Positions 840-26,783 of a DNA stretch of 64,000 nucleotides are shown here, in pieces. The stretch spans positions 1 to 64,000 of the IMG/VR virus record IMGVR_UViG_3300031787_000068; one strand, given 5' to 3'. The position numbers were made by a program, and so were the translations under genes. This DNA is from a virus. The notes below the pieces were generated by a model. The model saw only the letters and a program-made list of their open reading frames with translations. It did no database searches and was not told where the DNA came from. Each line of letters begins with the position of its first letter. Position 1 is the stretch's first letter.

Positions 840-847
840 GATATATA
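840..847 (+). promoter_or_regulatory. Putative phage late promoter GATATATA
   Basis: The same octamer lies 5-30 nt upstream of at least 15 gene starts in the window; here it precedes ATG 878. Confidence 0.7.
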
Positions 848-877
848 AATTATAATTTTAAAAACTAAAAATAAAAT

Positions 878-2293
878 ATGAAAACAAGACCAGTATTTGA
901 AAACTTTAGTGATTTCGTTGCTAATCTTTATGAAATGGAATTGAGAAATCCCGGATCTATATCCACCTTAATGGAAGGAGAGATCTACGAAAAACTAAAA
1001 AATGGAAATAGCTTTAGTCTTCCTGATCTTTTGAAGCTTAAAGGAGGATTAGATAACGATTCTGTATTTGAAGAAGCAGTAAAAAATCTACAGGTTTCAG
1101 CTTATTCGGTTCCTGACGCAGCAAAAGAATTAAAAGAATTCTCTTCTGTTATTCGAGATTTGTCAACCGAAGAATGGATAGACCAAGAATCATTTGGTAT
1201 TTTCTCCATAGGAATAATTGATAAGATTGCGCCTTACGATTACGGGGATTCCGGAAGTGTGGAAGTTAAAGGAGCTCCTAGTCTTAAAGATTTCACCTCG
1301 ATAGAAAAAGGGGTTCAAACTATGACCTATTCCGAAATGCTAGCTTTAATAGCTGCATATAATGCTTCTATTTTCATGAAGAATTTAGAAATCCAGAAAG
1401 AAAATATAAAATCCGTAAAAACGGTAAAGAAAATTATTAAAGGGAAAGAAAAAGTCTATAATCAAATGCCTCTGGCAAATCCAAAAGATCAATTAGTTCT
1501 TACGGTAACAGAAGGAAATTCCCAAATAGTAGTAACTCCTCTTGGAGAGTTAAATCCCTCTTCTATAGTTACTCTAGGTACCCCTACCGGCTATGGAGCT
1601 GGATCTGTTTCCGATGCGTTTTTTACCCAATTTAAATACATATTTCCTATAATTAAGAAAGATGCTAATAGTAAGGAGCCTCTAAGTATAGAATCCAGAC
1701 AAAAGTTGGTTTCTCCGGATAAAACTAAGAATTATATGGGAGTAAAAGAATATCCGTTAAAAATTAAAGAGGACGGAAAAACCACATTTTATGTAACTAA
1801 TAAAGCAGAATTAACTGAAGCTGGTAAAGCTGCAGCAGCTTCTCTTTCGAGGATGTTTCTTAAAATAAATACAATCGTAGTAGACGGAAGTGCTGATAAA
1901 AGAGATGCCGGTTCTCCTTGGAAAGACAATCAAGAATTGGCAGGAGCAAGAAGAGATGAGATGGTAAAATATTTACAAGAATTAGCCAAAGATTCTAATT
2001 CTTCTCTTTCGGGAGCTTCTATTGAGCCAGGAGAAATAAAAGTACAGCCAAAAGAAGGAGAGGGATCGGAGGACGATAAAATGGCAGATTGGAGATCGGT
2101 TTCATTAAAAGTAACAGGTGAAATCTACGACGAAACTAAAAAATCTTTAGATGAACAAAAAACCGAATCCAAAGTTGTAACTTACACCGAGAAAAAAATG
2201 GCAAGACAATATACATTCGATAATTGTTTAATAGCCTATAGATACGATTATCCAGAATTATCAAGTGATAAAAAACAATTCGAAGATAAATAA
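878..2293 (+). CDS. OmpA-C-like (peptidoglycan-binding) domain protein, putative virion/head cargo, cassette 1
   Basis: C-terminal FYVTNKAELT...IVVDGSAD...NQELAGARRDEMVKYL...WRSVSLKV matches the OmpA_C pattern. No signal peptide. N-terminal MKTRPVFENFSDFV tag. Confidence 0.7.
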   Translation: MKTRPVFENFSDFVANLYEMELRNPGSISTLMEGEIYEKLKNGNSFSLPDLLKLKGGLDNDSVFEEAVKNLQVSAYSVPDAAKELKEFSSVIRDLSTEEWIDQESFGIFSIGIIDKIAPYDYGDSGSVEVKGAPSLKDFTSIEKGVQTMTYSEMLALIAAYNASIFMKNLEIQKENIKSVKTVKKIIKGKEKVYNQMPLANPKDQLVLTVTEGNSQIVVTPLGELNPSSIVTLGTPTGYGAGSVSDAFFTQFKYIFPIIKKDANSKEPLSIESRQKLVSPDKTKNYMGVKEYPLKIKEDGKTTFYVTNKAELTEAGKAAAASLSRMFLKINTIVVDGSADKRDAGSPWKDNQELAGARRDEMVKYLQELAKDSNSSLSGASIEPGEIKVQPKEGEGSEDDKMADWRSVSLKVTGEIYDETKKSLDEQKTESKVVTYTEKKMARQYTFDNCLIAYRYDYPELSSDKKQFEDK

Positions 2294-2310
2294 ATAATTC
2301 TAAAAAAATA

Positions 2311-2346
2311 AAAAAACCCTTAGATTCTTGAGTCTAAGGGTTTTTT
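2311..2346. terminator. Bidirectional intrinsic terminator
   Basis: aaaaaaCCCTTAGAT-tcttga-GTCTAAGGGtttttt hairpin with A/T tracts on both sides, between convergent genes. Confidence 0.85.
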
Positions 2347-2361
2347 ATTATATTTAAAAAT

Positions 2362-2826
2362 CTATTCGGAAACAAAAATTATTACTTTTAAATTCTCCCC
2401 TTCGATTTTGGTTCTTACATCAAATTCTTTAAAATCCTCGTTTTTAACCCCGTAATACCCGTGTTCTTTTAATAAATCCTTAAGAATAACAACGGATTCT
2501 CTTGCTACCTGATCGTCTGAAAAATAGTCCTTAGGGAAAATTATAGATGTAATTTCTGTTGGAAAATTCGAAGTCTCTTTTATTTGGGAAAGAGAAGGGT
2601 GACCGTTAGCATTTAAATAAGAATTAACTGTTTTCTCAAATTTTCCCGTTTTCTGGATATTTGGAAAATCGACAAGCAACAGAGATTTTGCTTTTTCTTC
2701 TATCTGGGATAAGCTATTTCTACTGTCGTATTCGATTATAAAATCAGAAGATTGGGATTCTTGAGAAAATAATTTTCCTCCGATTAACGATCCAGCTAAA
2801 AAGATGGATAAAACTAATTTTTTCAT
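2362..2826 (-). CDS. Secreted/periplasmic protein with signal peptide, cassette 1 partner
   Basis: MKKLVLSIFLAGSLIGGKLFSQ is a typical Sec signal peptide. Paralogue of 4343..4807 (both 154 aa; shared SNFP and GY motifs). Confidence 0.75.
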   Translation of the reverse strand: MKKLVLSIFLAGSLIGGKLFSQESQSSDFIIEYDSRNSLSQIEEKAKSLLLVDFPNIQKTGKFEKTVNSYLNANGHPSLSQIKETSNFPTEITSIIFPKDYFSDDQVARESVVILKDLLKEHGYYGVKNEDFKEFDVRTKIEGENLKVIIFVSE

Positions 2827-2897
2827 GGCTCTTAAATTAAATTAATAAATTATTTATAGATCAAATATAGGGATTTTCTTGTAGAAAAAAAATAAAA
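2819..2897. repeat. 79-bp perfect direct repeat, copy 1 (start codon, leader and promoter of partner gene)
   Basis: Identical to 4800..4878 by manual alignment. Confidence 0.95.
2862..2869 (-). promoter_or_regulatory. Bacteroidota housekeeping-sigma -7 element (TATATTTG = TAnnTTTG)
   Basis: Exact TAnnTTTG match about 35 nt upstream of ATG 2826. The -33 TTTG is not a perfect match. Confidence 0.6.
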
Positions 2898-2920
2898 TAT
2901 AAAAAAATAAAAGAAAGAAA

Positions 2921-2928
2921 GATATATA
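2921..2928 (+). promoter_or_regulatory. Putative late promoter GATATATA
   Basis: Upstream of ATG 2955. Confidence 0.7.
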
Positions 2929-2954
2929 ATTTAATTAATAATTTAAAATAAAAT

Positions 2955-4286
2955 ATGAAAACAAGACCGGTATTTGAAAGCTTTGGTGCTTTCGTAGATT
3001 TTTTAAACAATTCTGTTAATGAATCTGAGGTAAAAACTTACAAAGACCTCATAAGCAATCTCAATAATTTTTTAGATGCGGATGCAATTCAAGGATTTCA
3101 ATCGGCAAGAAAAGCTTTCGATAAAGCCCCAACATTCCAAAAACATCTTAAGAATTCCTTGGATATTCTAAGCGACAATTTAACTTATTTCGATGACGGT
3201 ATAGACTCTAGCATGGATGATAACCGATCCCCAGACTTAATGCAGATTTCGGAAAAGACTACCACAGAGATAAAGAAACATGTTTATGCACCTCTAATTA
3301 ATGGTAAGGTTAAGGTTGCCAACATTAATGGTAGTATTGCAAATTGCAATGCTGCGAATGAAATCTACGATAAAGAATGGATAGATATCAATGACCTTCT
3401 TACGAAAATGAATCTCGCTAATATTTACGAGGCAGACAATAAACCGTCTTCAAAAGAAGATAAAAGTGAAAAATGGGTTACTGTGGAAAAATCCAATAAA
3501 GTTGCTCAAAGCGGATCGGTAGGTATGCAGTATATTTCTTCTGTAGCTGCGGGAATTACGGTAGGAATGATGGAAAACGGTTTCGGAGATAAGATATTGC
3601 CTTCTTTTAGTTTTCCTTCGCTTAGTGCTGAAGATTCATCCAAAAATCCGGTAAAAAGGACCCTTATCCTATACGGAATAGGAGAAATAGGTTATGGCGC
3701 AGGAGGTACAATCGAAGATTATTTCATTAAAAAAGACTTCATAAAAGAAGTAATTCCAGGAGAAGTTACAGAATATGAGGCTAAAGTAGACGGAAGTGAT
3801 GGAATGTTCGATCAAAACGGAACCGTAATTAACCCTAAACAAAAAGATGCAATGGATAAAATGCTAACCGCAGCACTTGCTCCTTTGGCTGCCTCTCCCG
3901 AATCAATAACAATAGTAGGAGGAGCTTCTTATGAATCTAGCGGAGACAAAAAAGGACCGGATAGCGAGATTAATAAAAAATTGGTTGTGTCTAGAGCAAA
4001 TGCGGTTAAAAAGCATTTGGAAACACTTTATCCTGAGTTGGTGGGAAAAGTTAAGGTTGACGATAAAGACTTTAGTAAAATACAAAAAACAGACGATGCA
4101 AAGGAATACCCTAACTTTAGAAAAGTTTATTTAAAAGTAAGAGGAGTACTTCAAGGAGATAGTAAGGAGATAACAAGACCTATTGATCTTGTGGTAAATC
4201 AACCTATATTAGCAGATTCAGTGGAAATTATACAATATGCTATTTCTATTGAGTATTCTCTTCCCAAATTCAAAAAGCCCAAATAA
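2955..4286 (+). CDS. OmpA-C-like domain protein, putative virion/head cargo, cassette 2
   Basis: MFDQNGTVI...ITIVGGAS...NKKLVVSRANAVKKHL...NFRKVYLKV. The N-terminus MKTRPVFESFGAFV is nearly identical to that of 878..2293. Confidence 0.7.
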   Translation: MKTRPVFESFGAFVDFLNNSVNESEVKTYKDLISNLNNFLDADAIQGFQSARKAFDKAPTFQKHLKNSLDILSDNLTYFDDGIDSSMDDNRSPDLMQISEKTTTEIKKHVYAPLINGKVKVANINGSIANCNAANEIYDKEWIDINDLLTKMNLANIYEADNKPSSKEDKSEKWVTVEKSNKVAQSGSVGMQYISSVAAGITVGMMENGFGDKILPSFSFPSLSAEDSSKNPVKRTLILYGIGEIGYGAGGTIEDYFIKKDFIKEVIPGEVTEYEAKVDGSDGMFDQNGTVINPKQKDAMDKMLTAALAPLAASPESITIVGGASYESSGDKKGPDSEINKKLVVSRANAVKKHLETLYPELVGKVKVDDKDFSKIQKTDDAKEYPNFRKVYLKVRGVLQGDSKEITRPIDLVVNQPILADSVEIIQYAISIEYSLPKFKKPK

Positions 4287-4304
4287 AAATAAAAAATAAA
4301 AAAT

Positions 4305-4335
4305 AAAAAACTCCGAAATTAATTTCGGAGTTTTT
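4305..4335. terminator. Bidirectional intrinsic terminator
   Basis: aaaaaaCTCCGAAAT-ta-ATTTCGGAGttttt between convergent genes. Confidence 0.85.
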
Positions 4336-4342
4336 GTTTTAA

Positions 4343-4807
4343 TTAATTATAGGATTTTTTATCCGATGGGTATATGTAGGTCTCATCTAAAGCTACTACT
4401 AAGAATAATTTTCCATCTCTCTCTACGAATTTTGTAAAGTGACGGTCCGGGGTAATAGGGTATCCGGAAGACTTAATCCAATCTATTCTATTTTGAACTA
4501 TTTCTGTGATCATATCTACGGTAGGATCGTTATTAAAAGTAATTATCAAGTAGGTGTCCGGAAAATTTGAAGTAAATTTAGATTTTTCTCCTGTCATTTT
4601 TTGATTAATATAGTCATCAATTCTACTCTCGAATACCTTATATTCTTCTGATCCCGGATAATTTTTTAGGATAACATTCTCTATTCCTTCGATGATAGAA
4701 ATTCTTTTGGAATCCTCTATAGGGTATTTAATAGAATCATTAACTGATCCAAAAGATTTACCAATAGAAATCCCAACTAAACTTAAAACTAAAACTAACT
4801 TTTTCAT
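4343..4807 (-). CDS. Secreted/periplasmic protein with signal peptide, cassette 2 partner
   Basis: MKKLVLVLSLVGISIGKSFG signal peptide; paralogue of 2362..2826. Confidence 0.75.
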   Translation of the reverse strand: MKKLVLVLSLVGISIGKSFGSVNDSIKYPIEDSKRISIIEGIENVILKNYPGSEEYKVFESRIDDYINQKMTGEKSKFTSNFPDTYLIITFNNDPTVDMITEIVQNRIDWIKSSGYPITPDRHFTKFVERDGKLFLVVALDETYIYPSDKKSYN

Positions 4808-4878
4808 GGCTCTTAAATTAAATTAATAAATTATTTATAGATCAAATATAGGGATTTTCTTGTAGAAAAAAAATAAAA
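4800..4878. repeat. 79-bp perfect direct repeat, copy 2 (contains TATATTTG on the minus strand at 4843..4850)
   Basis: Identical to 2819..2897, offset 1981 bp. Confidence 0.95.
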
Positions 4879-4886
4879 AGTAAAAA

Positions 4887-4913
4887 GAAACTAAAAAAAA
4901 TAAAATTATATAA
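4887..4913 (+). promoter_or_regulatory. Putative middle promoter GAAAC-N17-TATAA
   Basis: A similar bipartite motif lies upstream of three other non-structural genes. Confidence 0.35.
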
Positions 4914-4919
4914 GAATTA

Positions 4920-6374
4920 ATGTCTAAAGTAAAAAAGAAAGAGTACGTTCCTAAAGTTGATACATCAACACTAAATGAAGATCAAAAGAAGGCTTTTGAT
5001 TCCCTTGTTGATTTTATAAGGGACCTAAATGACGATTCCATATACGTTCTTAAAGGGTGGGCCGGAACTGGAAAAACGTATACGATAAGTCTTCTTGTTA
5101 GATACGTTTTAGACGTCATACAGCCGACTCGTCTGTGGTACAAAGTTGGTGTTACCGGTCCAACTAATAAATCAGTACGCGTAATAAGAAAAGCAACTGG
5201 CATATCCAGCTCAAGGGTTCAGTTCCAAACTGTTCATAAAATATTAGGACTTTCAGAAAAGATCACTTCGGACGGACAACAGATATTTGTTAATGATGGA
5301 GATTTTAAACCCCAGATAAGAACTCTAAAGCTTCTTATTGTTGATGAGGTATCTATGCTTAATGATGATCTTTTTGAGGAACTTCTTAAATATAGGGATA
5401 AGACTAAGATCATTTTTATGGGAGATCCGGCTCAGATACCTCCAGTAGGAAGACCGGATTGTATTCCATTTAGGGATGAACTTCTAGATGGTTATAGGAT
5501 AAAAACCCTAAATCTCAGACAGATAATGAGACAGAAAGAGGGAAATCCTATAATAGAATCTTCAGTAAAAATAAGAAAGAATATTACAAATCCGGATTCA
5601 GGAATTTCTTCTAGTAATAAACTAAATCAGATTGGAGAAGGAATCGAATTCATAAATCTTAATTCCCCAGAATCCAGATCTTCTTTTAGAGCTATATTAG
5701 AAAAGTATTATAAAACAGATACCTTTTCTAAAGATTCCGAGTATTGCAAAGTTATAGGATGGAGAAATAAGACAATATCCTCTATGAACGATTTAGTTCG
5801 AAAAGTTATATACGGAGACGAAGCTCTTTCCTCTAAGATACTAATAGGAGAAAAACTTATAGCAAATTCTCCTATTTTAGAAAAGGACACAATAATATTT
5901 AATACAAATGATGAATTTTCGGTGGAATCTTTTGAAGTAGAATCTGAAGATTTAAGGTTTAAAGTATCAGATCATCCCGATGATGATCCTTATCCTATAA
6001 CATTAAAGCACTATGAAGCTTTAGTCTCCTATTTGGACGAAGATGACGATTTGGTAAAGAGAACTATTAGAATCCTACATGAAGACAGTGAAGGGGAATT
6101 TAAAAAACTTGCAAATATACTTAAATTAAGAGCTATAAATAAGAAGGGAAAGGATAAGAGTTGGATAGTCTATTATAATTTTTTAAGAAGATACGCAGAT
6201 GTTATGTACGGTTATTCAATAACTGCACACAAGGCGCAAGGAAGTACTTACGACACGGTATTTCTTTTAGAAGATGATATAGATGTTAATTGGAATATTG
6301 TAGAAAGAAATCGTATAAAATACACAGCTTATACGAGATCTAGTCGAAAACTCTATGTGATTAAAAGATTTTAA
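4920..6374 (+). CDS. dda: Dda/RecD-like SF1B DNA helicase
   Basis: Walker A GWAGTGKT, GPTNKS, TVHKIL, Walker B IVDEVSM, GDPAQIPPV, YSITAHKAQGSTY, YTAYTR. Confidence 0.9.
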   Translation: MSKVKKKEYVPKVDTSTLNEDQKKAFDSLVDFIRDLNDDSIYVLKGWAGTGKTYTISLLVRYVLDVIQPTRLWYKVGVTGPTNKSVRVIRKATGISSSRVQFQTVHKILGLSEKITSDGQQIFVNDGDFKPQIRTLKLLIVDEVSMLNDDLFEELLKYRDKTKIIFMGDPAQIPPVGRPDCIPFRDELLDGYRIKTLNLRQIMRQKEGNPIIESSVKIRKNITNPDSGISSSNKLNQIGEGIEFINLNSPESRSSFRAILEKYYKTDTFSKDSEYCKVIGWRNKTISSMNDLVRKVIYGDEALSSKILIGEKLIANSPILEKDTIIFNTNDEFSVESFEVESEDLRFKVSDHPDDDPYPITLKHYEALVSYLDEDDDLVKRTIRILHEDSEGEFKKLANILKLRAINKKGKDKSWIVYYNFLRRYADVMYGYSITAHKAQGSTYDTVFLLEDDIDVNWNIVERNRIKYTAYTRSSRKLYVIKRF

Positions 6375-7320: not shown

Positions 7321-7929
7321 ATGTCATATACTAGAGAACAAATTGAAACTGCTGTAAAATCTAAAGGGTATAAATGGTTTGAAGATACTTCTAATAAAAC
7401 TTATGACGTTAATATCGTAGGAATTAGAAATACTTCTCCTTCTGTCTATAGAAAAGTAACTAATGTATTTGATGATCATTTAACTATATCATTTAAAGAC
7501 GAAAAAGGAGATTGGCAATTTTTTTGCTGGATGGCTACCTGCGATCCTGGAAAAAAAGGGGTTCAGCAATTTCACAATAGAAACGGAGTAGCCAGGTTAG
7601 TACCAGGACAGTACAGAGGGGTTTGGAAAGTGGATAAACACCAGGGGAAATATGATGCTCTTTGTCAAAGAAACGGAAATGTTACTGTATGGAGAGATGC
7701 CAATAGAGATTTAGTTTTTGAAGAAAATGTTACCGATACTGGAATGTTTGGTATTAACATACATAAAGCAGGTCAAGACTCTACATGGGTAGAAAATTGG
7801 TCAGAAGGTTGTCAGGTATTTAAGAGAGTAAAAGATTTCGATTCTTTTATGGCTATATGTAAAAAAGCTTCAAAAATTCACGGAAACAAATTTAGCTATA
7901 CTCTTCTAGAATCTACAGACATAAAATAG
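7321..7929 (+). CDS. YkuD/L,D-transpeptidase-like cysteine peptidase, candidate endolysin
   Basis: GINIHKAG...NWSEGCQV fits the HxX14-17(S/T)xGC catalytic motif. Late promoter, near the holin. Confidence 0.6.
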   Translation: MSYTREQIETAVKSKGYKWFEDTSNKTYDVNIVGIRNTSPSVYRKVTNVFDDHLTISFKDEKGDWQFFCWMATCDPGKKGVQQFHNRNGVARLVPGQYRGVWKVDKHQGKYDALCQRNGNVTVWRDANRDLVFEENVTDTGMFGINIHKAGQDSTWVENWSEGCQVFKRVKDFDSFMAICKKASKIHGNKFSYTLLESTDIK

Positions 7930-7930
7930 T

Positions 7931-9334
7931 ATGAGAAGAGTAAAAGACTATAGAACTTATCTTAATGAATCCTGGCTTACCGGAAGTGATGCTTCTAAGA
8001 TAATGACCAAAATCATTAAAGGCGAAAAAAGAAAAATAAAGCCAAAAGAAAAATCAGAGATAGATCCTGATTTATCGGATTCTGGGGTATCGATAAATAC
8101 CCAATGGGAGTACGATGAAGATTATAAGGGGTTTCTTGGATCAAGTCCTCTTTTCGGAGGAGAAGTTGTTCTAAGAGAATTGTCCGAAGAAGATATTGAT
8201 GTAGAGACTAAAGAATATGAAGTTATTTCAGGTCTCAATAAAGGAAAAAGAGGAAATTTTGAATGGAAAGATGAAGGAGGAACAAGATATCCGGTTTTTG
8301 ATAAACCCTATAATTCTTCTTTTACTTCCCTTTTGGGATATTCTGAAGAATTTTTAAAAACCTATAAGGATAATTATAGATGGAAAACTCCTATTCCTGA
8401 AATTCCTGGAGCCGAAATAGTCAAAAAAGGGGATAAAGGAGAATGCGAAATTCACTATAAAGACATTTATCAGCTATACGGAAAAATAAGAATTTATTAC
8501 GATTCGAATTCCGAAGATCCTTATTTAAGCTACGAGGTACTTGATGGTCCTAATTCAGGAAAAAGGGGATCGGGAGTAACTTTTATGCAGCCAGGACAGT
8601 TTAACAATTCCGGGGTTTTAAATGCTTTTTCTGATCAAAATAGTCCTAAATTTTTATCTTCAGAGGAATTTCCTTTCTATCCCGCTGATATATCTGATAA
8701 AGATTATTCGGGGTTTGTTTCTCGAAAAAATAGAAAATGGAAATCCTTAATTTCTACAACTGGAATGAGTACTGCACAATATATATATTTTAGTACTAAG
8801 GGAATAGATTCTATAGAAGCTCCTTCGGAAGAGGTATTTGAAAGCATGATAGAAAGCGTAGAGCCCTTAAATACTACTAATCAATTACCCCGTATTAAAG
8901 CAGACAGCAGAAGTGGAGGAGGAGGAATTGTAAATAAAAGCCAATATAAAAGTACGGATTTATTTAGTAGTGGTATTCCTGAAAAAACAACTTCCACCTT
9001 AGAAGATCTAAAAATAAAAGGAAATAAATGGCCAGGAGCTATATTACATTGTTTTCCGTTCCTTAATGACATAGCTCTTTATGCAGTTCCTTGTAAAAGA
9101 TCCGAAAACCCTAAACTTAATTTTAATAGCGATTTGGGAGTTTATGGAAATTTATATTTTAGCGGTAGATTTTTAGTAAATCCTAAAGAATGGAAAATAC
9201 TTAAAGGAGAATGGTATATAGATTATTCTACTAAATCAATTGGGATCATATACGCATTTGATGAACAGGGTAAATATGCAGACATTATTTATGACCCTGA
9301 AAGTAAATATCCAAATCATTATTCACTATTTTAA
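7931..9334 (+). CDS. Hypothetical protein, putative head cargo
   Basis: N-terminal tag MRRVKDYRTYLNES; internal repeat YEVISGLNKGKRG / YEVLDGPNSGKRG. Confidence 0.55.
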   Translation: MRRVKDYRTYLNESWLTGSDASKIMTKIIKGEKRKIKPKEKSEIDPDLSDSGVSINTQWEYDEDYKGFLGSSPLFGGEVVLRELSEEDIDVETKEYEVISGLNKGKRGNFEWKDEGGTRYPVFDKPYNSSFTSLLGYSEEFLKTYKDNYRWKTPIPEIPGAEIVKKGDKGECEIHYKDIYQLYGKIRIYYDSNSEDPYLSYEVLDGPNSGKRGSGVTFMQPGQFNNSGVLNAFSDQNSPKFLSSEEFPFYPADISDKDYSGFVSRKNRKWKSLISTTGMSTAQYIYFSTKGIDSIEAPSEEVFESMIESVEPLNTTNQLPRIKADSRSGGGGIVNKSQYKSTDLFSSGIPEKTTSTLEDLKIKGNKWPGAILHCFPFLNDIALYAVPCKRSENPKLNFNSDLGVYGNLYFSGRFLVNPKEWKILKGEWYIDYSTKSIGIIYAFDEQGKYADIIYDPESKYPNHYSLF

Positions 9335-9345
9335 AGTTTAAATTT

Positions 9346-10173
9346 ATGAAAAAAATAAAAATTTTTGAAGAATATACGAGTCAAAATTACGAAAAAGATC
9401 TTGTAGATTTTTTATATGAAAAAATTAAAAGTCATTCAGATTTTGGATATTATCCAATATATGAAGATGGGGAAGAAGAAGAACTACAAAGACCTCTTAC
9501 AAGAGGAGAAAGAGCTGCTTTAGCAAGAGATTATCAAATTATATCCGAGCCGCAGTTAGCAGCTTTGTACCTTAAGGCCTTAGGAAGAGCTGAAGGAGAA
9601 GATGGGGCATATTTGGTCATGATAGACGGGATAAGGGATTTTGGAGAAATTGATCCTAATACAAGAGCTTTTTCTATAACTAATCCAGCTCTAGCTGATG
9701 CTATAGGACTCGAGTCTACGAGTACAGTATATAGAACTGTAAGTAAATTTATCAATTTGATAGAGGGAGTAGGAGAAACTTCTTCTGAAGCATTGTACCC
9801 TAAGGTAATTAAAGCTTTCGAAAAATTTTCCACTATGAATCCGGTTCAAATATCAAATTTAGCTTCTGAATGCATTCAGGATTCTATGGAATATACTGTA
9901 AATAGGGACAAGGCAGAATTATCTAGAGATTCTTCTGCTAAAAAAAGAGAAGAAGCTTTAAAAAGAGCCGATTTAATAGGACAGAAAGTTTACACTCTAA
10001 CCAATCTTCTCAAAGAAAAACCTTTGTTTAAACTAGAAGGAAAAGCTCAAAGAGCAGCTATAAGAAAAATAGCAGCGGAAGAAGAAGAAACAGAAGAAAA
10101 AATTAAAGATTTCTACAGAAATTACTTAACATCTAGAAAAATTTTAAATTCTGCAACTTTTTATGATAAATAA
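9346..10173 (+). CDS. Putative head cargo protein with HTH-like motif
   Basis: Tag MKKIKIFEEY; ITNPALADAIGLESTSTVYRTVSKF resembles a helix-turn-helix. Confidence 0.5.
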   Translation: MKKIKIFEEYTSQNYEKDLVDFLYEKIKSHSDFGYYPIYEDGEEEELQRPLTRGERAALARDYQIISEPQLAALYLKALGRAEGEDGAYLVMIDGIRDFGEIDPNTRAFSITNPALADAIGLESTSTVYRTVSKFINLIEGVGETSSEALYPKVIKAFEKFSTMNPVQISNLASECIQDSMEYTVNRDKAELSRDSSAKKREEALKRADLIGQKVYTLTNLLKEKPLFKLEGKAQRAAIRKIAAEEEETEEKIKDFYRNYLTSRKILNSATFYDK

Positions 10174-10628
10174 AAATTTAAAGAGATAAAAGAAATAGAA
10201 TATAGAATCACTATAGAAAATAAAAATCTATAGTGATTTTTTATTTTATGGAGATATTTATTTCTTTTTAATATGGAAAGAGAATCTTTAAATATGTAAT
10301 TTCTGTCCTCATCCGTTACAAAGGGAGAATCATTCTGGAATTCCCCGACCCCATTTCTTTCTAATTCTTCTCCCATAAATATTTCTTCTACTATGCAATA
10401 CTCTAGCATTTCTAATTTTATTTTATTTTTTCTATAAGTCTCATAGGAGATAAAAATAGCAATAACCAATGATATAAAATAAGTTCCAAAAATAATCTCA
10501 ATCATCATAGAAAGAATTAAATTGGAAATCATGAAAATTAAAGGAGTTTTATTAGGAATTGGAATTACCCCGAAAATTCTCGTAACTTCTTTTAATGAAT
10601 TCAATTTTTGAATATAATAATTTTCCAT
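10161..10628 (-). CDS. Membrane protein (about 3 TM segments)
   Basis: Hydrophobic segments LIFMISNLILSMMIEIIFG, YFISLVIAIFIS and FLFSIVILYSISFISL. Confidence 0.65.
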   Translation of the reverse strand: MENYYIQKLNSLKEVTRIFGVIPIPNKTPLIFMISNLILSMMIEIIFGTYFISLVIAIFISYETYRKNKIKLEMLEYCIVEEIFMGEELERNGVGEFQNDSPFVTDEDRNYIFKDSLSILKRNKYLHKIKNHYRFLFSIVILYSISFISLNFYLS

Positions 10629-23616: not shown

Positions 23617-26115
23617 ATGAGTTTCGGATTTTCAGGAGCTACGGATAGAAATAGGTATAGGTTTCTAAGCGGCTTTAAACTTAATGATCAAGGGAAAAAC
23701 GAGGATCCAACATATCTTGGGTTTTCGGTAGATTTTGATTTTGGGGTTTTGGATATAGATTTAGAATATGGAACCCCAATAAGTCCTCTTTTTAGGGATT
23801 CGAATTATGAAAACCCCACCGGAAGAAACCTATTCGGACAGCTACAATATATTGGAAGAAGCGATCCTAGTGTTCTTTTTTATTGTGCCCAAGGCTATTT
23901 AAACGAGAGAGAAAAAAGAGTAGGTCAGGGATTCCCGGAGGGAGGAGGAAAAAGATCCCAGATGCTTAAACAATTTAAAATCCTTTTAAGGGACATAACT
24001 AGAAATCAGCCTTGGTTTTTTCAATCTATAGATGGACTAGATTCTTTATATAAAGTTGCTAGACCAGGATTTCAAACGGAAACACTGGAAAGCGACTTTA
24101 ATCCATCCAGAGCTGCAACCATAACCATCAATACATTAGAATCCCTAAATCTTAGAATTACTGCTTTAGCAGATCTCTATAATCATGCCACCTTCGATTT
24201 CATAAATATGAGGGAAACTATTCCTCGAAATCTTAGAAGATTTCGAATGTATATTTATGTTACCGATTTGAGAAATTTCTTTAAGACCAATAGGCTTATT
24301 AATTCGTCTACTACTCTTTCCACTATAAATAATTTTTCAAATCTTTTAGGATCAGGTATAAATCCCGGGAATAGCTTATCCGGGGGAACCCTAGATAGTA
24401 CAGGGGATTTTCCGGACGATACAGGAGCACAGGGAGGAGTTGTCGGAAATGTTCTTGGCGATATAGCAAGATCCGAAGGAGTTACCAATCAACAAGACCA
24501 ATCTGGAATAAAACCGGTAATACTTTTGGAATGCAGTAATTGCGAATTTGATTTTACTGATACCTCTCCAATAGGTAATAGTATAAATGCAGGAACCGAT
24601 TCCGGAGATCAACTAGGACAGAGTTTTAAAATCCACGTAGGTAGAGTTAGAATAAGAAGTCAATACCCTAATATAAGGCTCGACAAAAATCCTCTAATAA
24701 TTTCTGACGATGTATTCACAAATAAAAGCTCACTTCAAAAATATGAAGGAGATCCTTCCGGAAGAACTCTATTTGGGGTAGACTTAGGAGGATCGGATTT
24801 AGCAGAACAGGGAGCAAGTGTTCTTAATAATTTTATAGGAAATACTGTAAATGATCTTTATGATAGAGGAGTTCAGCTAGTATCAGATGCTCTTAGTGGG
24901 GCTGATCAATTGTTATTAGGAAATATATATTCTTTTAATCCTTCTCAGATAACAGGATTTTTATCTGGAAATACCTCCAATCTAAGTCTTAATACTATTA
25001 GAGATTTTGCTAATCAAAGTTCTCAAGTTGATTTAGTTTCTTCTTTTGAAAACGGATTACCAAACCCTCAAACTACGGGACAAGGAGGCCCTCCTCAAAA
25101 TACATATCCTCCTGGTATTTTAACGAATTTAGATCTCTATAGTAAAGTTCCGGGCCAGGATTTAGGGGTTACCCCTCCCGGATCCCCTACAATAGGAAGG
25201 GTTTACCCTCAATTAAAGCCAGAAGACGTTTATAACGGAGTTCCTGGCGGAGATTTAGGTGTTCCCCAAAGAGTTTACAAAGATCCTGAGGGAGATGTAT
25301 ATGGAAATGTTCCGGGAAGTGATCTCGGTCCTCCCCAGAGACTTTATCTTTCACCGGACGAAGGGGATAGATATCCTGAAGTTCCTGGAAAAGATTTAGG
25401 AGTTCCCCAAAGAGTTTATCCCTCCCCCGGGGGAAATTTAGATTCTTATCCTGACGTTCCGGGAAAAGATCTTGGTGTTCCCGAAAGAATATACCCAACC
25501 GTGACGGAAGATTTTTATCCTGATGTTCCGGGAAGAGATCTAGGAGTTCCTAACAGACTATACCCAGAAGTAAAAGACGATGTTTACCCAGAAGTTCCAG
25601 GAAGAGATCTAGGAGTTCCTAATAGGCTATACCCAGAAGTAAAAGACGATGTTTACAAAGAGGTTCCGGGAAGAGATCTAGGGGTTCCGGAAAGATCATA
25701 CCCTATCGTTAAAGACGATGTTTATAAAGAAGTTCCCGGAAAAGACCTAGGAGTTCCAGGAAGAAGATATGATGGAGTTAATCAAAACGTTTATCAAAAT
25801 TCTCCTAATGTATCCAATCAATTAAATCCTCAGCCTAGAATATATGAAGATGAGCCAGCAAAAAATCCAGGAATCCTAGGAGATGTTTATTTGAATCAGA
25901 TCGAAAACCCTAGTGAATTTAAAACCAAACCTTCCCCGGTTTATCCTAGAGAAGAAACTAAATACTTTAGAGGAAATCTAGGAGATCTATATCCTCCAAC
26001 AAGAGAAGATTTTAATCCGGACGAACCTGGGGATTTAGGAAACTTAAAACCTAAAGATTCGTATAATATAAGTCTCGGAGGTAAAAATCCGGATCCTACT
26101 AAATTTAATTCTTAA
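23617..26115 (+). CDS. Virion structural protein: tube-like N-terminal region plus 23-aa Pro-rich tandem repeats
   Basis: EDPTYLGF, PWFFQSIDGL, LESLNLRI, RFRMYIYVTDLR in the baseplate cluster; repeat block in the C-terminal half; GATAAATA variant at 23597..23604. Confidence 0.55.
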   Translation: MSFGFSGATDRNRYRFLSGFKLNDQGKNEDPTYLGFSVDFDFGVLDIDLEYGTPISPLFRDSNYENPTGRNLFGQLQYIGRSDPSVLFYCAQGYLNEREKRVGQGFPEGGGKRSQMLKQFKILLRDITRNQPWFFQSIDGLDSLYKVARPGFQTETLESDFNPSRAATITINTLESLNLRITALADLYNHATFDFINMRETIPRNLRRFRMYIYVTDLRNFFKTNRLINSSTTLSTINNFSNLLGSGINPGNSLSGGTLDSTGDFPDDTGAQGGVVGNVLGDIARSEGVTNQQDQSGIKPVILLECSNCEFDFTDTSPIGNSINAGTDSGDQLGQSFKIHVGRVRIRSQYPNIRLDKNPLIISDDVFTNKSSLQKYEGDPSGRTLFGVDLGGSDLAEQGASVLNNFIGNTVNDLYDRGVQLVSDALSGADQLLLGNIYSFNPSQITGFLSGNTSNLSLNTIRDFANQSSQVDLVSSFENGLPNPQTTGQGGPPQNTYPPGILTNLDLYSKVPGQDLGVTPPGSPTIGRVYPQLKPEDVYNGVPGGDLGVPQRVYKDPEGDVYGNVPGSDLGPPQRLYLSPDEGDRYPEVPGKDLGVPQRVYPSPGGNLDSYPDVPGKDLGVPERIYPTVTEDFYPDVPGRDLGVPNRLYPEVKDDVYPEVPGRDLGVPNRLYPEVKDDVYKEVPGRDLGVPERSYPIVKDDVYKEVPGKDLGVPGRRYDGVNQNVYQNSPNVSNQLNPQPRIYEDEPAKNPGILGDVYLNQIENPSEFKTKPSPVYPREETKYFRGNLGDLYPPTREDFNPDEPGDLGNLKPKDSYNISLGGKNPDPTKFNS
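25132..25785 (+). repeat. Nine in-frame tandem repeats of about 69 bp / 23 aa (DvYxxVPGxDLGVPxRxYp)
   Basis: For example DFYPDVPGRDLGVPNRLYPEVKD / DVYPEVPGRDLGVPNRLYPEVKD / DVYKEVPGRDLGVPERSYPIVKD. Confidence 0.9.
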
Positions 26116-26783
26116 TGCCGTCTAATAAATCTTATCTAGGAGTAATAGTTGATATAGCAGACCCTTTAAAACAGGGTAGAGCTAGGGTTAGAGTTTTTGG
26201 TATATTTGACGATATACCAGTTGAAGATCTACCTTGGGCAGAGCCAGGAACTGCATGTGAATATTTCGGTGGAGGTGGAGGTGGAGGAGCTGTAAGTGTT
26301 CCTAGAGTAGGTGCTGTAGTATATTGTTCTTTTGAAGGTGAAAATTATTATAAATTGTATTTCGATACAATAAAGGAATTTTGTCCTGAACTTGTAGATG
26401 AAATGAATGAAGAAAATTCTTATGAGGGATTTCATTCCATAATATATGATACAGAAGCTCAGCCTGGACCTTTAAAATTATTTTATAGCCGAAAAAAAGG
26501 TCTAGTTTTTGAGTTGGGGGAAGCTAAAGTTCAATTGGATACCCAAAACGGAGGAAAATTGAGAGTTGTCCTAAAGATGGGAGAAGACGAAATAAGAATG
26601 GAAAACAATAAAGTTATCGTAAATTCCTTAAATATAGAATTGGGGGAGGGAGCAGTTCAATCTGTAATACTTGGTGATCTATTTAAAACTATATACGATA
26701 CCCATACCCATGCGGGAGCAGGATCTCCTCCTGTCGTTCCTCTCCCCACTTCAGTATTAAGTAAAACCTCTAAAACTAAGTAA
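26115..26783 (+). CDS. Baseplate central spike, gp5/gpV-like OB-fold, without a lysozyme domain
   Basis: YLGVIVDIADPLKQGRARVRVFG...LPWA...VPRVGAVVYCSF; C-terminal HTH (His-x-His) metal-binding tip motif. Confidence 0.85.
   Translation: MPSNKSYLGVIVDIADPLKQGRARVRVFGIFDDIPVEDLPWAEPGTACEYFGGGGGGGAVSVPRVGAVVYCSFEGENYYKLYFDTIKEFCPELVDEMNEENSYEGFHSIIYDTEAQPGPLKLFYSRKKGLVFELGEAKVQLDTQNGGKLRVVLKMGEDEIRMENNKVIVNSLNIELGEGAVQSVILGDLFKTIYDTHTHAGAGSPPVVPLPTSVLSKTSKTK

Follow-up and report, generated by a model that had tools for sequence, protein, structure and literature searches.

Why would a phage carry, twice in succession, a gene for a large protein that has a cell-wall-binding fold yet no export signal, and facing it a gene for a small secreted protein? 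The arrangement occupies positions 840–4878 of the window, by which we mean the initial 64 kb of the 76.9-kb IMG/VR record IMGVR_UViG_3300031787_000068 (CheckV completeness, 28%). Each of its two cassettes encodes a protein of 471 or 443 residues, here called L, and a convergent 154-residue signal-peptide partner, S, in which an earlier reading made from the letters alone (the sequence-only reading) had seen a candidate effector/immunity or superinfection-exclusion system. We find that L and S are exchanged between related phages as whole units, and structure prediction points to direct binding of S to its cognate L. On these grounds we tentatively propose that S neutralizes L delivered into the periplasm by infecting virions.

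Two convergent cassettes linked by conserved joints

A unit of about 2 kb does occur twice, with all four open reading frames (ORFs) recovered in the order and on the strands that the sequence-only reading had given them and a repeat spacing of 1981–2077 nt. In the first cassette, L1 (878–2293, + strand; 471 residues comprising a leader, an N-domain, beta arms and an OmpA-like domain) starts 38 nt downstream of the late-type promoter motif GATATATA (840–847, +) and faces S1 (2362–2826, −; 154 residues), which consists of a signal peptide of about residues 1–22 and a 130-residue alpha-beta-alpha domain that is weakly CAP-like. In the second, L2 (2955–4286, +; 443 residues) starts 34 nt downstream of another GATATATA motif (2921–2928, +) and shares the leader of L1; its N-domain has diverged, and its OmpA-like domain reads GGAS for GSAD while keeping the Arg. 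Its partner S2 (4343–4807, −; 154 residues, type 2) has a signal peptide and is related both to S1 and to the partner proteins of distant jumbo phages. Bidirectional intrinsic terminators had been claimed between the convergent genes, and hairpins are indeed found on both strands, with folding z values from −5.2 to −5.9, at 2311–2346 between L1 and S1 (−5.2 and −5.5) and at 4306–4335 between L2 and S2 (−5.9 and −5.4). Upstream of each S gene, 43 nt from its start, lies TATATTTG, of the form TAnnTTTG (2862–2869 and 4843–4850, −).

DNA likeness between the units is confined to the joints that bound them. J0 (809–918, +) holds an A-rich spacer, the L1 promoter motif, the 5′ untranslated region and the L1 leader codons, and resembles both J1 and the joints of relatives; J1 (2792–2995) runs from the S1 signal-peptide codons through the S promoter region and the L2 promoter to the L2 leader codons; and J2 (4773–4934), which includes the second TATATTTG, holds the S2 signal-peptide codons and the S promoter, followed by the upstream region of a Dda-like helicase gene. 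Identity is 80% between 2792–2953 and 4773–4934 and 79% between 809–918 and 2886–2995. The gene bodies are unlike at the DNA level and the proteins still align, as befits the diverged paralogues that they had been taken for: S1 and S2 share 33% identity (E 2e-9), and BLASTP matches L1 and L2 over their first 14 residues (11/14 identical) and a GYGAG patch, to which the family alignment adds the OmpA-like part.

L and S are exchanged as whole units

Loci were sampled from three sides: L, S and the neighbouring helicase. Convergent L–S pairs were present in 12 of the 12 related contigs with readable flanks, 16 pairs altogether, and no orphan L or S was seen wherever the flanks of these contigs could be read from any of the three sides. 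The co-occurrence of the two families, which the sequence-only reading had proposed checking in relatives, thus holds in 16/16 convergent pairs. Within the clade, the slot lies between a conserved leader-tagged gene for a protein of 560–600 residues and the helicase gene and contains either one cassette (locus L009) or two. The pair is also found in jumbo phages whose helicase is only 64–68% identical, and the jumbo phages G002, G003 and G006 carry a single pair at another genomic position; L was not found in G004 or G005.

Comparison with the near relative L002 revealed flanks that are 86–91% identical around cassette bodies that cannot be aligned, with only the joints matching (79–86%; J0 is 85% identical to L002 9643–9755 and J1 86% identical to L002 9556–9754). 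Within about 190 bp, each such joint combines the promoters of S and L with the codons for the S signal peptide and for the L leader. Near-identical phages therefore hold unrelated cassettes in the same slot and, because the flanks are alike and only the joints match inside the locus, L and S are exchanged as whole units. The exchange probably takes place by recombination at the joints, J1 being a probable site of this kind.

The divergence of the two proteins is also coupled, as had been claimed. In 10 pairs compared after trimming of the leaders and signal peptides, sequence identity among the L proteins tracks that among the S proteins (Mantel r 0.86, p 1e-4); two of these pairs (P0018/P0025 and P0019/P0026) were put together solely on the equal lengths of their contigs. 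Type-2 L accompanies type-2 S even where the helicases are 64–68% identical. Such coupling might arise if the S genes were independent early morons that hitch-hike beside L by way of the shared joints, with no functional link between the proteins. Co-variation is explicable by linkage, and S is an orphan family, with 28 representative clusters out of 1.84 billion. However, the pair persists in distant genomes, at another position and with diverged joints, no orphan of either gene appears in the 12 contigs, and binding between the products is predicted; we regard an absence of any functional link as highly improbable.

S is predicted to bind its cognate L

Complex prediction was carried out for one pair, L1 residues 22–471 with S1 residues 23–154, using self-made alignments. 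The interface score ipSAE reached 0.84, 0.85 and 0.60, and the best of 3 controls scored 0.00. In calibration, 58 of 80 solved complexes and 2 of 110 mismatched pairs attained the same mark, counts that hold only roughly because self-made alignments were used. Across the L1–S1 runs at least 67% of contacts agree, and the predicted local distance difference test (pLDDT) value of the partner is at least 66. Binding of S to its cognate L, which the sequence-only reading had supposed, is thus predicted for L1 and S1 (ipSAE 0.84 against 0.00 for the controls), and on the strength of this model we consider it likely. In the predicted interface, the S strand 91–98 pairs with L residues 434–438, and S also contacts L residues 266–302 and the helix 315–326. 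Conservation of interface residues within type 1 did not differ from that of other residues (p ~0.09), a comparison that is uninformative.

A predicted direct contact bears on two other ways of accounting for the pair. One follows T5, in which the llp gene presumably adjoins the gene of the receptor-binding protein: S would mask a host envelope component that L also binds, and L and S would co-vary through their shared target. The co-variation observed here would suit such an arrangement, and there is a precedent in the T5 exclusion lipoprotein Llp, which targets the receptor of the receptor-binding protein (bioRxiv 10.1101/2022.06.28.497910, PMC9586334). Against it stand the direct L–S binding that is predicted, with all controls at 0.00, and the fact that S is no lipoprotein, and we consider this arrangement very unlikely.

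The other confines both proteins to the primary infection. L from the infecting particle would anchor or open the wall at the entry site and, minutes later, newly made S would bind this L, closing the site or taking it apart, with no role in exclusion. The anatomy, the compartments and the predicted binding would all be the same, and the grip of S on the beta arms, which might serve L oligomerization or attachment, rather than on the wall-binding pocket, agrees with such a task. It leaves unexplained, however, why near-identical phages are hypervariable here, why they carry one or two cassettes and why S domains of different types are found fused (see below), and it seems to us unlikely.

L carries an OmpA-like fold and no export signal

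L1 is laid out as a leader (MKTRPVFENF...LYE19), an alpha/beta N-domain at about 45–250 and an OmpA-like domain at about 285–416, which sits between long beta arms (252–294 and 432–454). The AlphaFold model has a mean pLDDT of 74, the N-domain being modelled as a confident alpha/beta domain. Residues 287–415 superpose on 4b62 with a VIA Z score of 10.2 and a root-mean-square deviation of 2.6 Å over 115 aligned residues, and 32 of the 32 top rows of that list are OmpA-like domains (TagL of the type VI secretion system, MotB, OmpA and Pal). Foldseek matched L1 to 3td5_A (E 9.8e-4; template modelling (TM) score by target up to 0.67), and a profile of the 23 L members retrieved 6u83 (E 5.4e-8) and 3td3 (E 0.002) from the PDB. 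L carries an OmpA-like fold. The OmpA-C domain named by the sequence-only reading thus stands by fold and by profile, but not by single-sequence Pfam score: PF00691 gives 16.5 and 17.0 bits for L1 and L2, under the gathering score of 27.2, and matches only 5 of the 23 L members at E ≤0.1. D340 and R358 of L1 align with the Asp and Arg of 3td3 that contact diaminopimelate, and the full motif GSAD...N..L...R is kept only in type-1 L, that is, in L1 and its L003 homologue.

No L protein contains a hydrophobic segment (maximum KD19 ≤1.36), and therefore no L would be exported on its own. The N-domain (45–250), in which N162 is the only invariant residue, had no match in the family search or the ESM Atlas, searches in which it was not used alone. 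No toxic or enzymatic domain was recognized in L, OmpA being the only domain that recurs consistently across the 23 proteins, and for this reason the suggestion of an effector/immunity pair, in the sense of a toxin, finds no support. There were no relatives of L among 185,579 prokaryote species genomes, the GenBank phage collection gave no match at the DNA or the protein level, and P0003 as sole query had no match among viral contigs.

S is a secreted protein of several types

That S is a signal-peptide protein is borne out by inspection, which recognizes a typical n-h-c pattern of the Sec type without a lipobox Cys. The domain that follows, of about 130 residues, is modelled with pLDDT above 85 from about residue 40 to residue 154. 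Its best structural matches are weak ones to the CAP/SCP/PR-1 proteins (Foldseek E 0.02–0.09, TM score 0.38–0.41; VIA Z 6.8–5.5), and none of 27 S members matched the Pfam CAP family (PF00188) at E ≤0.1. Types 1 and 2 of S are connected by BLAST. Since partners that do exist in G002, G003 and G006 escaped a mixed S profile, A2, negative results of S profile searches mean little.

In two metagenomic proteins from outside the window, P0033 and P0051, a single signal peptide precedes two S domains that differ in type and are naturally fused into one chain; in P0033, the secreted chain runs from a type-3 S into a mature type-2 S. Such fusions fit a benefit from holding several specificities.

A capsid-targeting-like leader on L

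The MKTRPVFExF tag that had been noticed on both L proteins is present, as MKTRPVFE[NS]F, and is an instance of a genome-wide N-terminal motif with typical forms such as FNQFINE, FQEFLNE and YRTYLNE. Captured as a regular expression built post hoc, the pattern matches 16 of 72 ORFs at their N-termini, some 13 of these matches being convincing, as against 0.7% of internal windows. In L, FE[NS]F is followed by LYE at residues 17–19, and distant L homologues read FADFLIE. The leader resembles the capsid-targeting sequence (CTS) of T4, which we take to be MKTYQEFIAE. This string occurs in PMC8442874; in the T4 CTS, residues 4 and 7 serve in targeting and residues 8 and 10 in directing cleavage, and T4 gp21 cleaves after L/I-X-E (PMC9026906). 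Because the L leader is close to the T4 CTS and has an L-x-E site after it, packaging of L into the head is a reasonable inference, and on balance we think it rather probable that L is virion cargo.

The leader is not peculiar to L. At least 13 otherwise unrelated ORFs begin with a T4-CTS-like leader ([FY]xx[FYW][IL]NE), among them those at 7931, 9346, 11105, 13231 (−), 13709 (−), 14887 and 16420 in the window and at 69216, 72171, 72887, 73972 and 74663 of the record, which suggests a large set of head-packaged cargo proteins. One of these ORFs belongs to a further convergent pair, in which a leader-tagged gene for 275 residues (9346–10170, +) overlaps at its end with a gene for 155 residues (10164–10628, −); the N-terminus of the 155-residue protein has no evident signal peptide.

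Promoters and timing

The motif GATATATA occurs 19 times in the 76.9-kb record, and 17 of the 19 copies lie within 52 nt upstream of an ORF on the same strand. Copies in the window begin at 840, 2921, 6384, 6626, 7287, 11084, 13254 (−), 13732 (−), 14860, 15961, 27452, 29705, 40986, 51884, 54855 and 62720, and they precede, among others, baseplate and fibre genes (27467, 29727, 41014 and 54872), an endolysin-like gene (7321–7926) and several leader-tagged genes. The motif stands upstream of every L gene, including those of distant relatives whose helicase is 64–68% identical. It looks like a late promoter element of this phage group; L, which shares it with baseplate and fibre genes, would therefore be of late type, as the sequence-only reading had it.

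The host-type promoter that had been assigned to S is also present: TAnnTTTG, presumably the Bacteroidota sigma-A −7 element, stands about 43 nt upstream of both S starts and is conserved even at L018 and L019, distant loci with differing surroundings. Three freshwater metatranscriptome libraries, from 3 studies, contained exact contigs for parts of L1 and L2 (819–1880 and 3430–3817) and none for S1 or S2; as the libraries may include carried-over DNA and a gap in coverage is no proof of anything, no timing is deduced from them.

With S periplasmic and L not exported, the two would meet only through virion delivery or through holin lesions at lysis. The latter route would make the pair a lysis accessory: L would stay in the cytoplasm until the holin lesions form and then join S in the periplasm, where the complex would tether or disrupt the wall and the outer membrane as a spanin-like third step. 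L has GATATATA in common with the endolysin-like gene (7321) and with the gene for a 54-residue membrane protein (6421) just downstream, and the periplasm is the sole meeting place of L and S. However, both proteins lack a membrane anchor and a lipobox, the leader occurs on many unrelated proteins, and lysis genes that are essential do not as a rule come in exchangeable polymorphic cassettes or in duplicates whose bodies are unrelated, all of which makes this role decidedly unlikely.

The source phage

The window has a G+C content of about 33% and encodes three T4-type proteins: the Dda-like helicase, a gp5-type baseplate hub OB-domain and a gp6-type baseplate wedge. The gp5-like hub (26115–26780; 222 residues) matches only the N-terminal OB part of T4 gp5 and is without a lysozyme domain. 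Related contigs reached through the helicase search are 190–480 kb long, and the gp21-type prohead protease (PF03420) scored above cut-off in 5 of 5 relatives searched, 4 of which are at least 85% complete; from these lengths and the protease we conclude that the phage is a T4-related jumbo myovirus. The DNA sequencing runs that hold the stretch are labelled mostly as freshwater or 'fungus' metagenome. The source is thus an uncultured T4-related jumbo myovirus of fresh water, with Bacteroidota-type signals.

A proposed role in exclusion

These features allow us to propose a role for the pair. L would be made late, loaded into the prohead, trimmed of its leader and ejected at infection; having no export signal yet an OmpA-like fold flanked by beta arms, it would act in the periplasm. 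S would be transcribed convergently from the host-type promoter, exported by means of its Sec signal peptide and, as modelled, would grip the beta arms of L, together with helix 1 of its OmpA-like domain, through beta-strand augmentation. Resident S could then capture L from later-arriving phages of the same type, or from the cell's own infecting particle, and the captured L would be blocked in its entry role or switched off, resulting in superinfection exclusion or self-protection. Phages would carry one or two cassette types, swapped as L–S units at the joints. We favour ejected cargo over the routes considered above because of the leader, the late-type promoter, the hypervariability, the presence of one or two cassettes and the S–S fusions; the full sequence of events, with L as ejected head cargo and S as its periplasmic neutralizer, is put forward tentatively, with nearly as much chance of being right as wrong.

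Several observations weigh against it. The predicted interface leaves out the peptidoglycan-binding residues D340 and R358, and the model therefore does not show S blocking wall binding. Peptidoglycan binding itself, which the sequence-only reading had attributed to the OmpA-C domains, is backed by the fold and by the invariant Arg, but the canonical Asp is present in type-1 L alone, L2 and all the other types having GGAS, with Ser for Asp. TAnnTTTG is not enriched across the window (77 observed, 68 expected), and a perfect match to the T4 late-promoter consensus, TATAAATA, is found 32 nt upstream of both S starts (2850–2857 and 4831–4838, −), between TATATTTG and the start, where it is conserved within the clade and not in distant relatives; given these two facts, the early timing of S is only inferred. 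The case for L as a virion-borne or cleaved protein is indirect, a prohead protease gene was found neither in this 28%-complete fragment nor in the 36%-complete near relative G001, and the T4 internal proteins, with which L shares its kind of leader, enter the cytoplasm with the DNA, not the periplasm, and act there against host restriction. Outside the signal peptide, which is all that hhalign aligned, type-3 S had no detectable homology to types 1 and 2; it may be unrelated to them or too diverged. Finally, linkage of adjacent genes can by itself produce co-variation, or part of it.

A wider form of the exclusion proposal would make the locus a polymorphic lock and key for recognition between phages, in which a matching secreted receptor of the resident phage reads a head-packaged wall-binding protein that has been ejected into the periplasm, and shuffling at the joints creates the types that decide which kin are excluded or sensed. 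We regard this as possible but doubtful. Superinfection sensing would be a different matter: T4 lysis inhibition responds to superinfection, and S might similarly recognize L dumped into the periplasm by an excluded kin phage and bring about a type-specific delay of lysis. Lysis inhibition upon superinfection in T4 is mentioned in a preprint (bioRxiv 10.1101/2025.11.12.688109) and supplies a precedent, specific binding is predicted by the model, and polymorphism fits kin discrimination. Yet S is soluble, nothing visible ties it to a holin, the analysis identified neither a holin nor an antiholin as a partner, and the idea is pure conjecture; its probability appears to us very small.

If the exclusion proposal is correct, the locus would offer a handle on kin discrimination and competition among jumbo phages of fresh water, which are abundant and uncultured. 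With its small size and a binding predicted at high model confidence, the pair lends itself to direct testing even without a host.

Comparison with known systems

No published description of the L–S pairing was found in the literature, and the resemblances are to parts of several systems. The OmpA, MotB, Pal and TagL anchors have the same fold as L, and L1 keeps the diaminopimelate-binding Asp/Arg pair of the Acinetobacter baumannii OmpA-like domain. Unlike these anchors, L is encoded by a phage and has no signal peptide, membrane anchor or lipobox, and most of its types have Ser for Asp. Polymorphic toxin/immunity systems likewise consist of adjacent co-varying pairs with conserved ends and swapped bodies, come in several types per genome and include fusions like those of S. 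However, no toxin domain is recognized in L, and S is exported whereas L is not, so that the two cannot meet in the producing cell.

In its presumed route, L recalls the internal proteins of T4 and other T-even phages (IPI, IPII, IPIII and Alt; PMC9026906, PMC3012670), which likewise have a leader [YF]xxF[IL]xE followed by an L/I-x-E site, are otherwise unrelated to one another, are transcribed from late promoters and are encoded at a locus that is highly variable between close relatives. Those proteins are small and basic, whereas L has 420–490 residues, an OmpA-like fold and a gene for a secreted partner. Should our proposal hold, T4-style capsid targeting could deliver envelope-acting proteins, not cytoplasm-acting ones alone.

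The closest functional parallels are with exclusion proteins of T4. Imm is an inner-membrane protein. According to a preprint (bioRxiv 10.64898/2026.03.06.709160), it binds the tape measure protein and so resembles S, as proposed here, in being an exclusion protein that binds a protein delivered into the envelope by the incoming virion; S, by contrast, is a soluble protein that is secreted, and L does not correspond to a tape measure. T4 Spackle (gp61.3) binds the gp5 tail lysozyme (PMC7677548, PMC7650644). There, as proposed for L and S, a small exported phage protein binds a virion-delivered, peptidoglycan-directed protein in the periplasm and blocks later infections. The likeness is functional only: PHROGs and Pfam place neither L nor S in a Spackle or gp5-lysozyme family, and the gp5-like hub of this phage is a separate gene, for 222 residues. 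L, moreover, has a wall-binding fold and no recognized lytic domain, and by its leader seems to be head cargo, not a baseplate spike. The L and S genes lie side by side and converge, occur in duplicate and are exchanged as polymorphic cassettes; no such linkage is known to us between sp and gene 5 of T4. If the proposed role is right, the pair would be a third mechanistic example beside the two T4 exclusion proteins that bind virion-delivered proteins, and the first such system to be polymorphic, cassette-borne and linked to the gene of its target.

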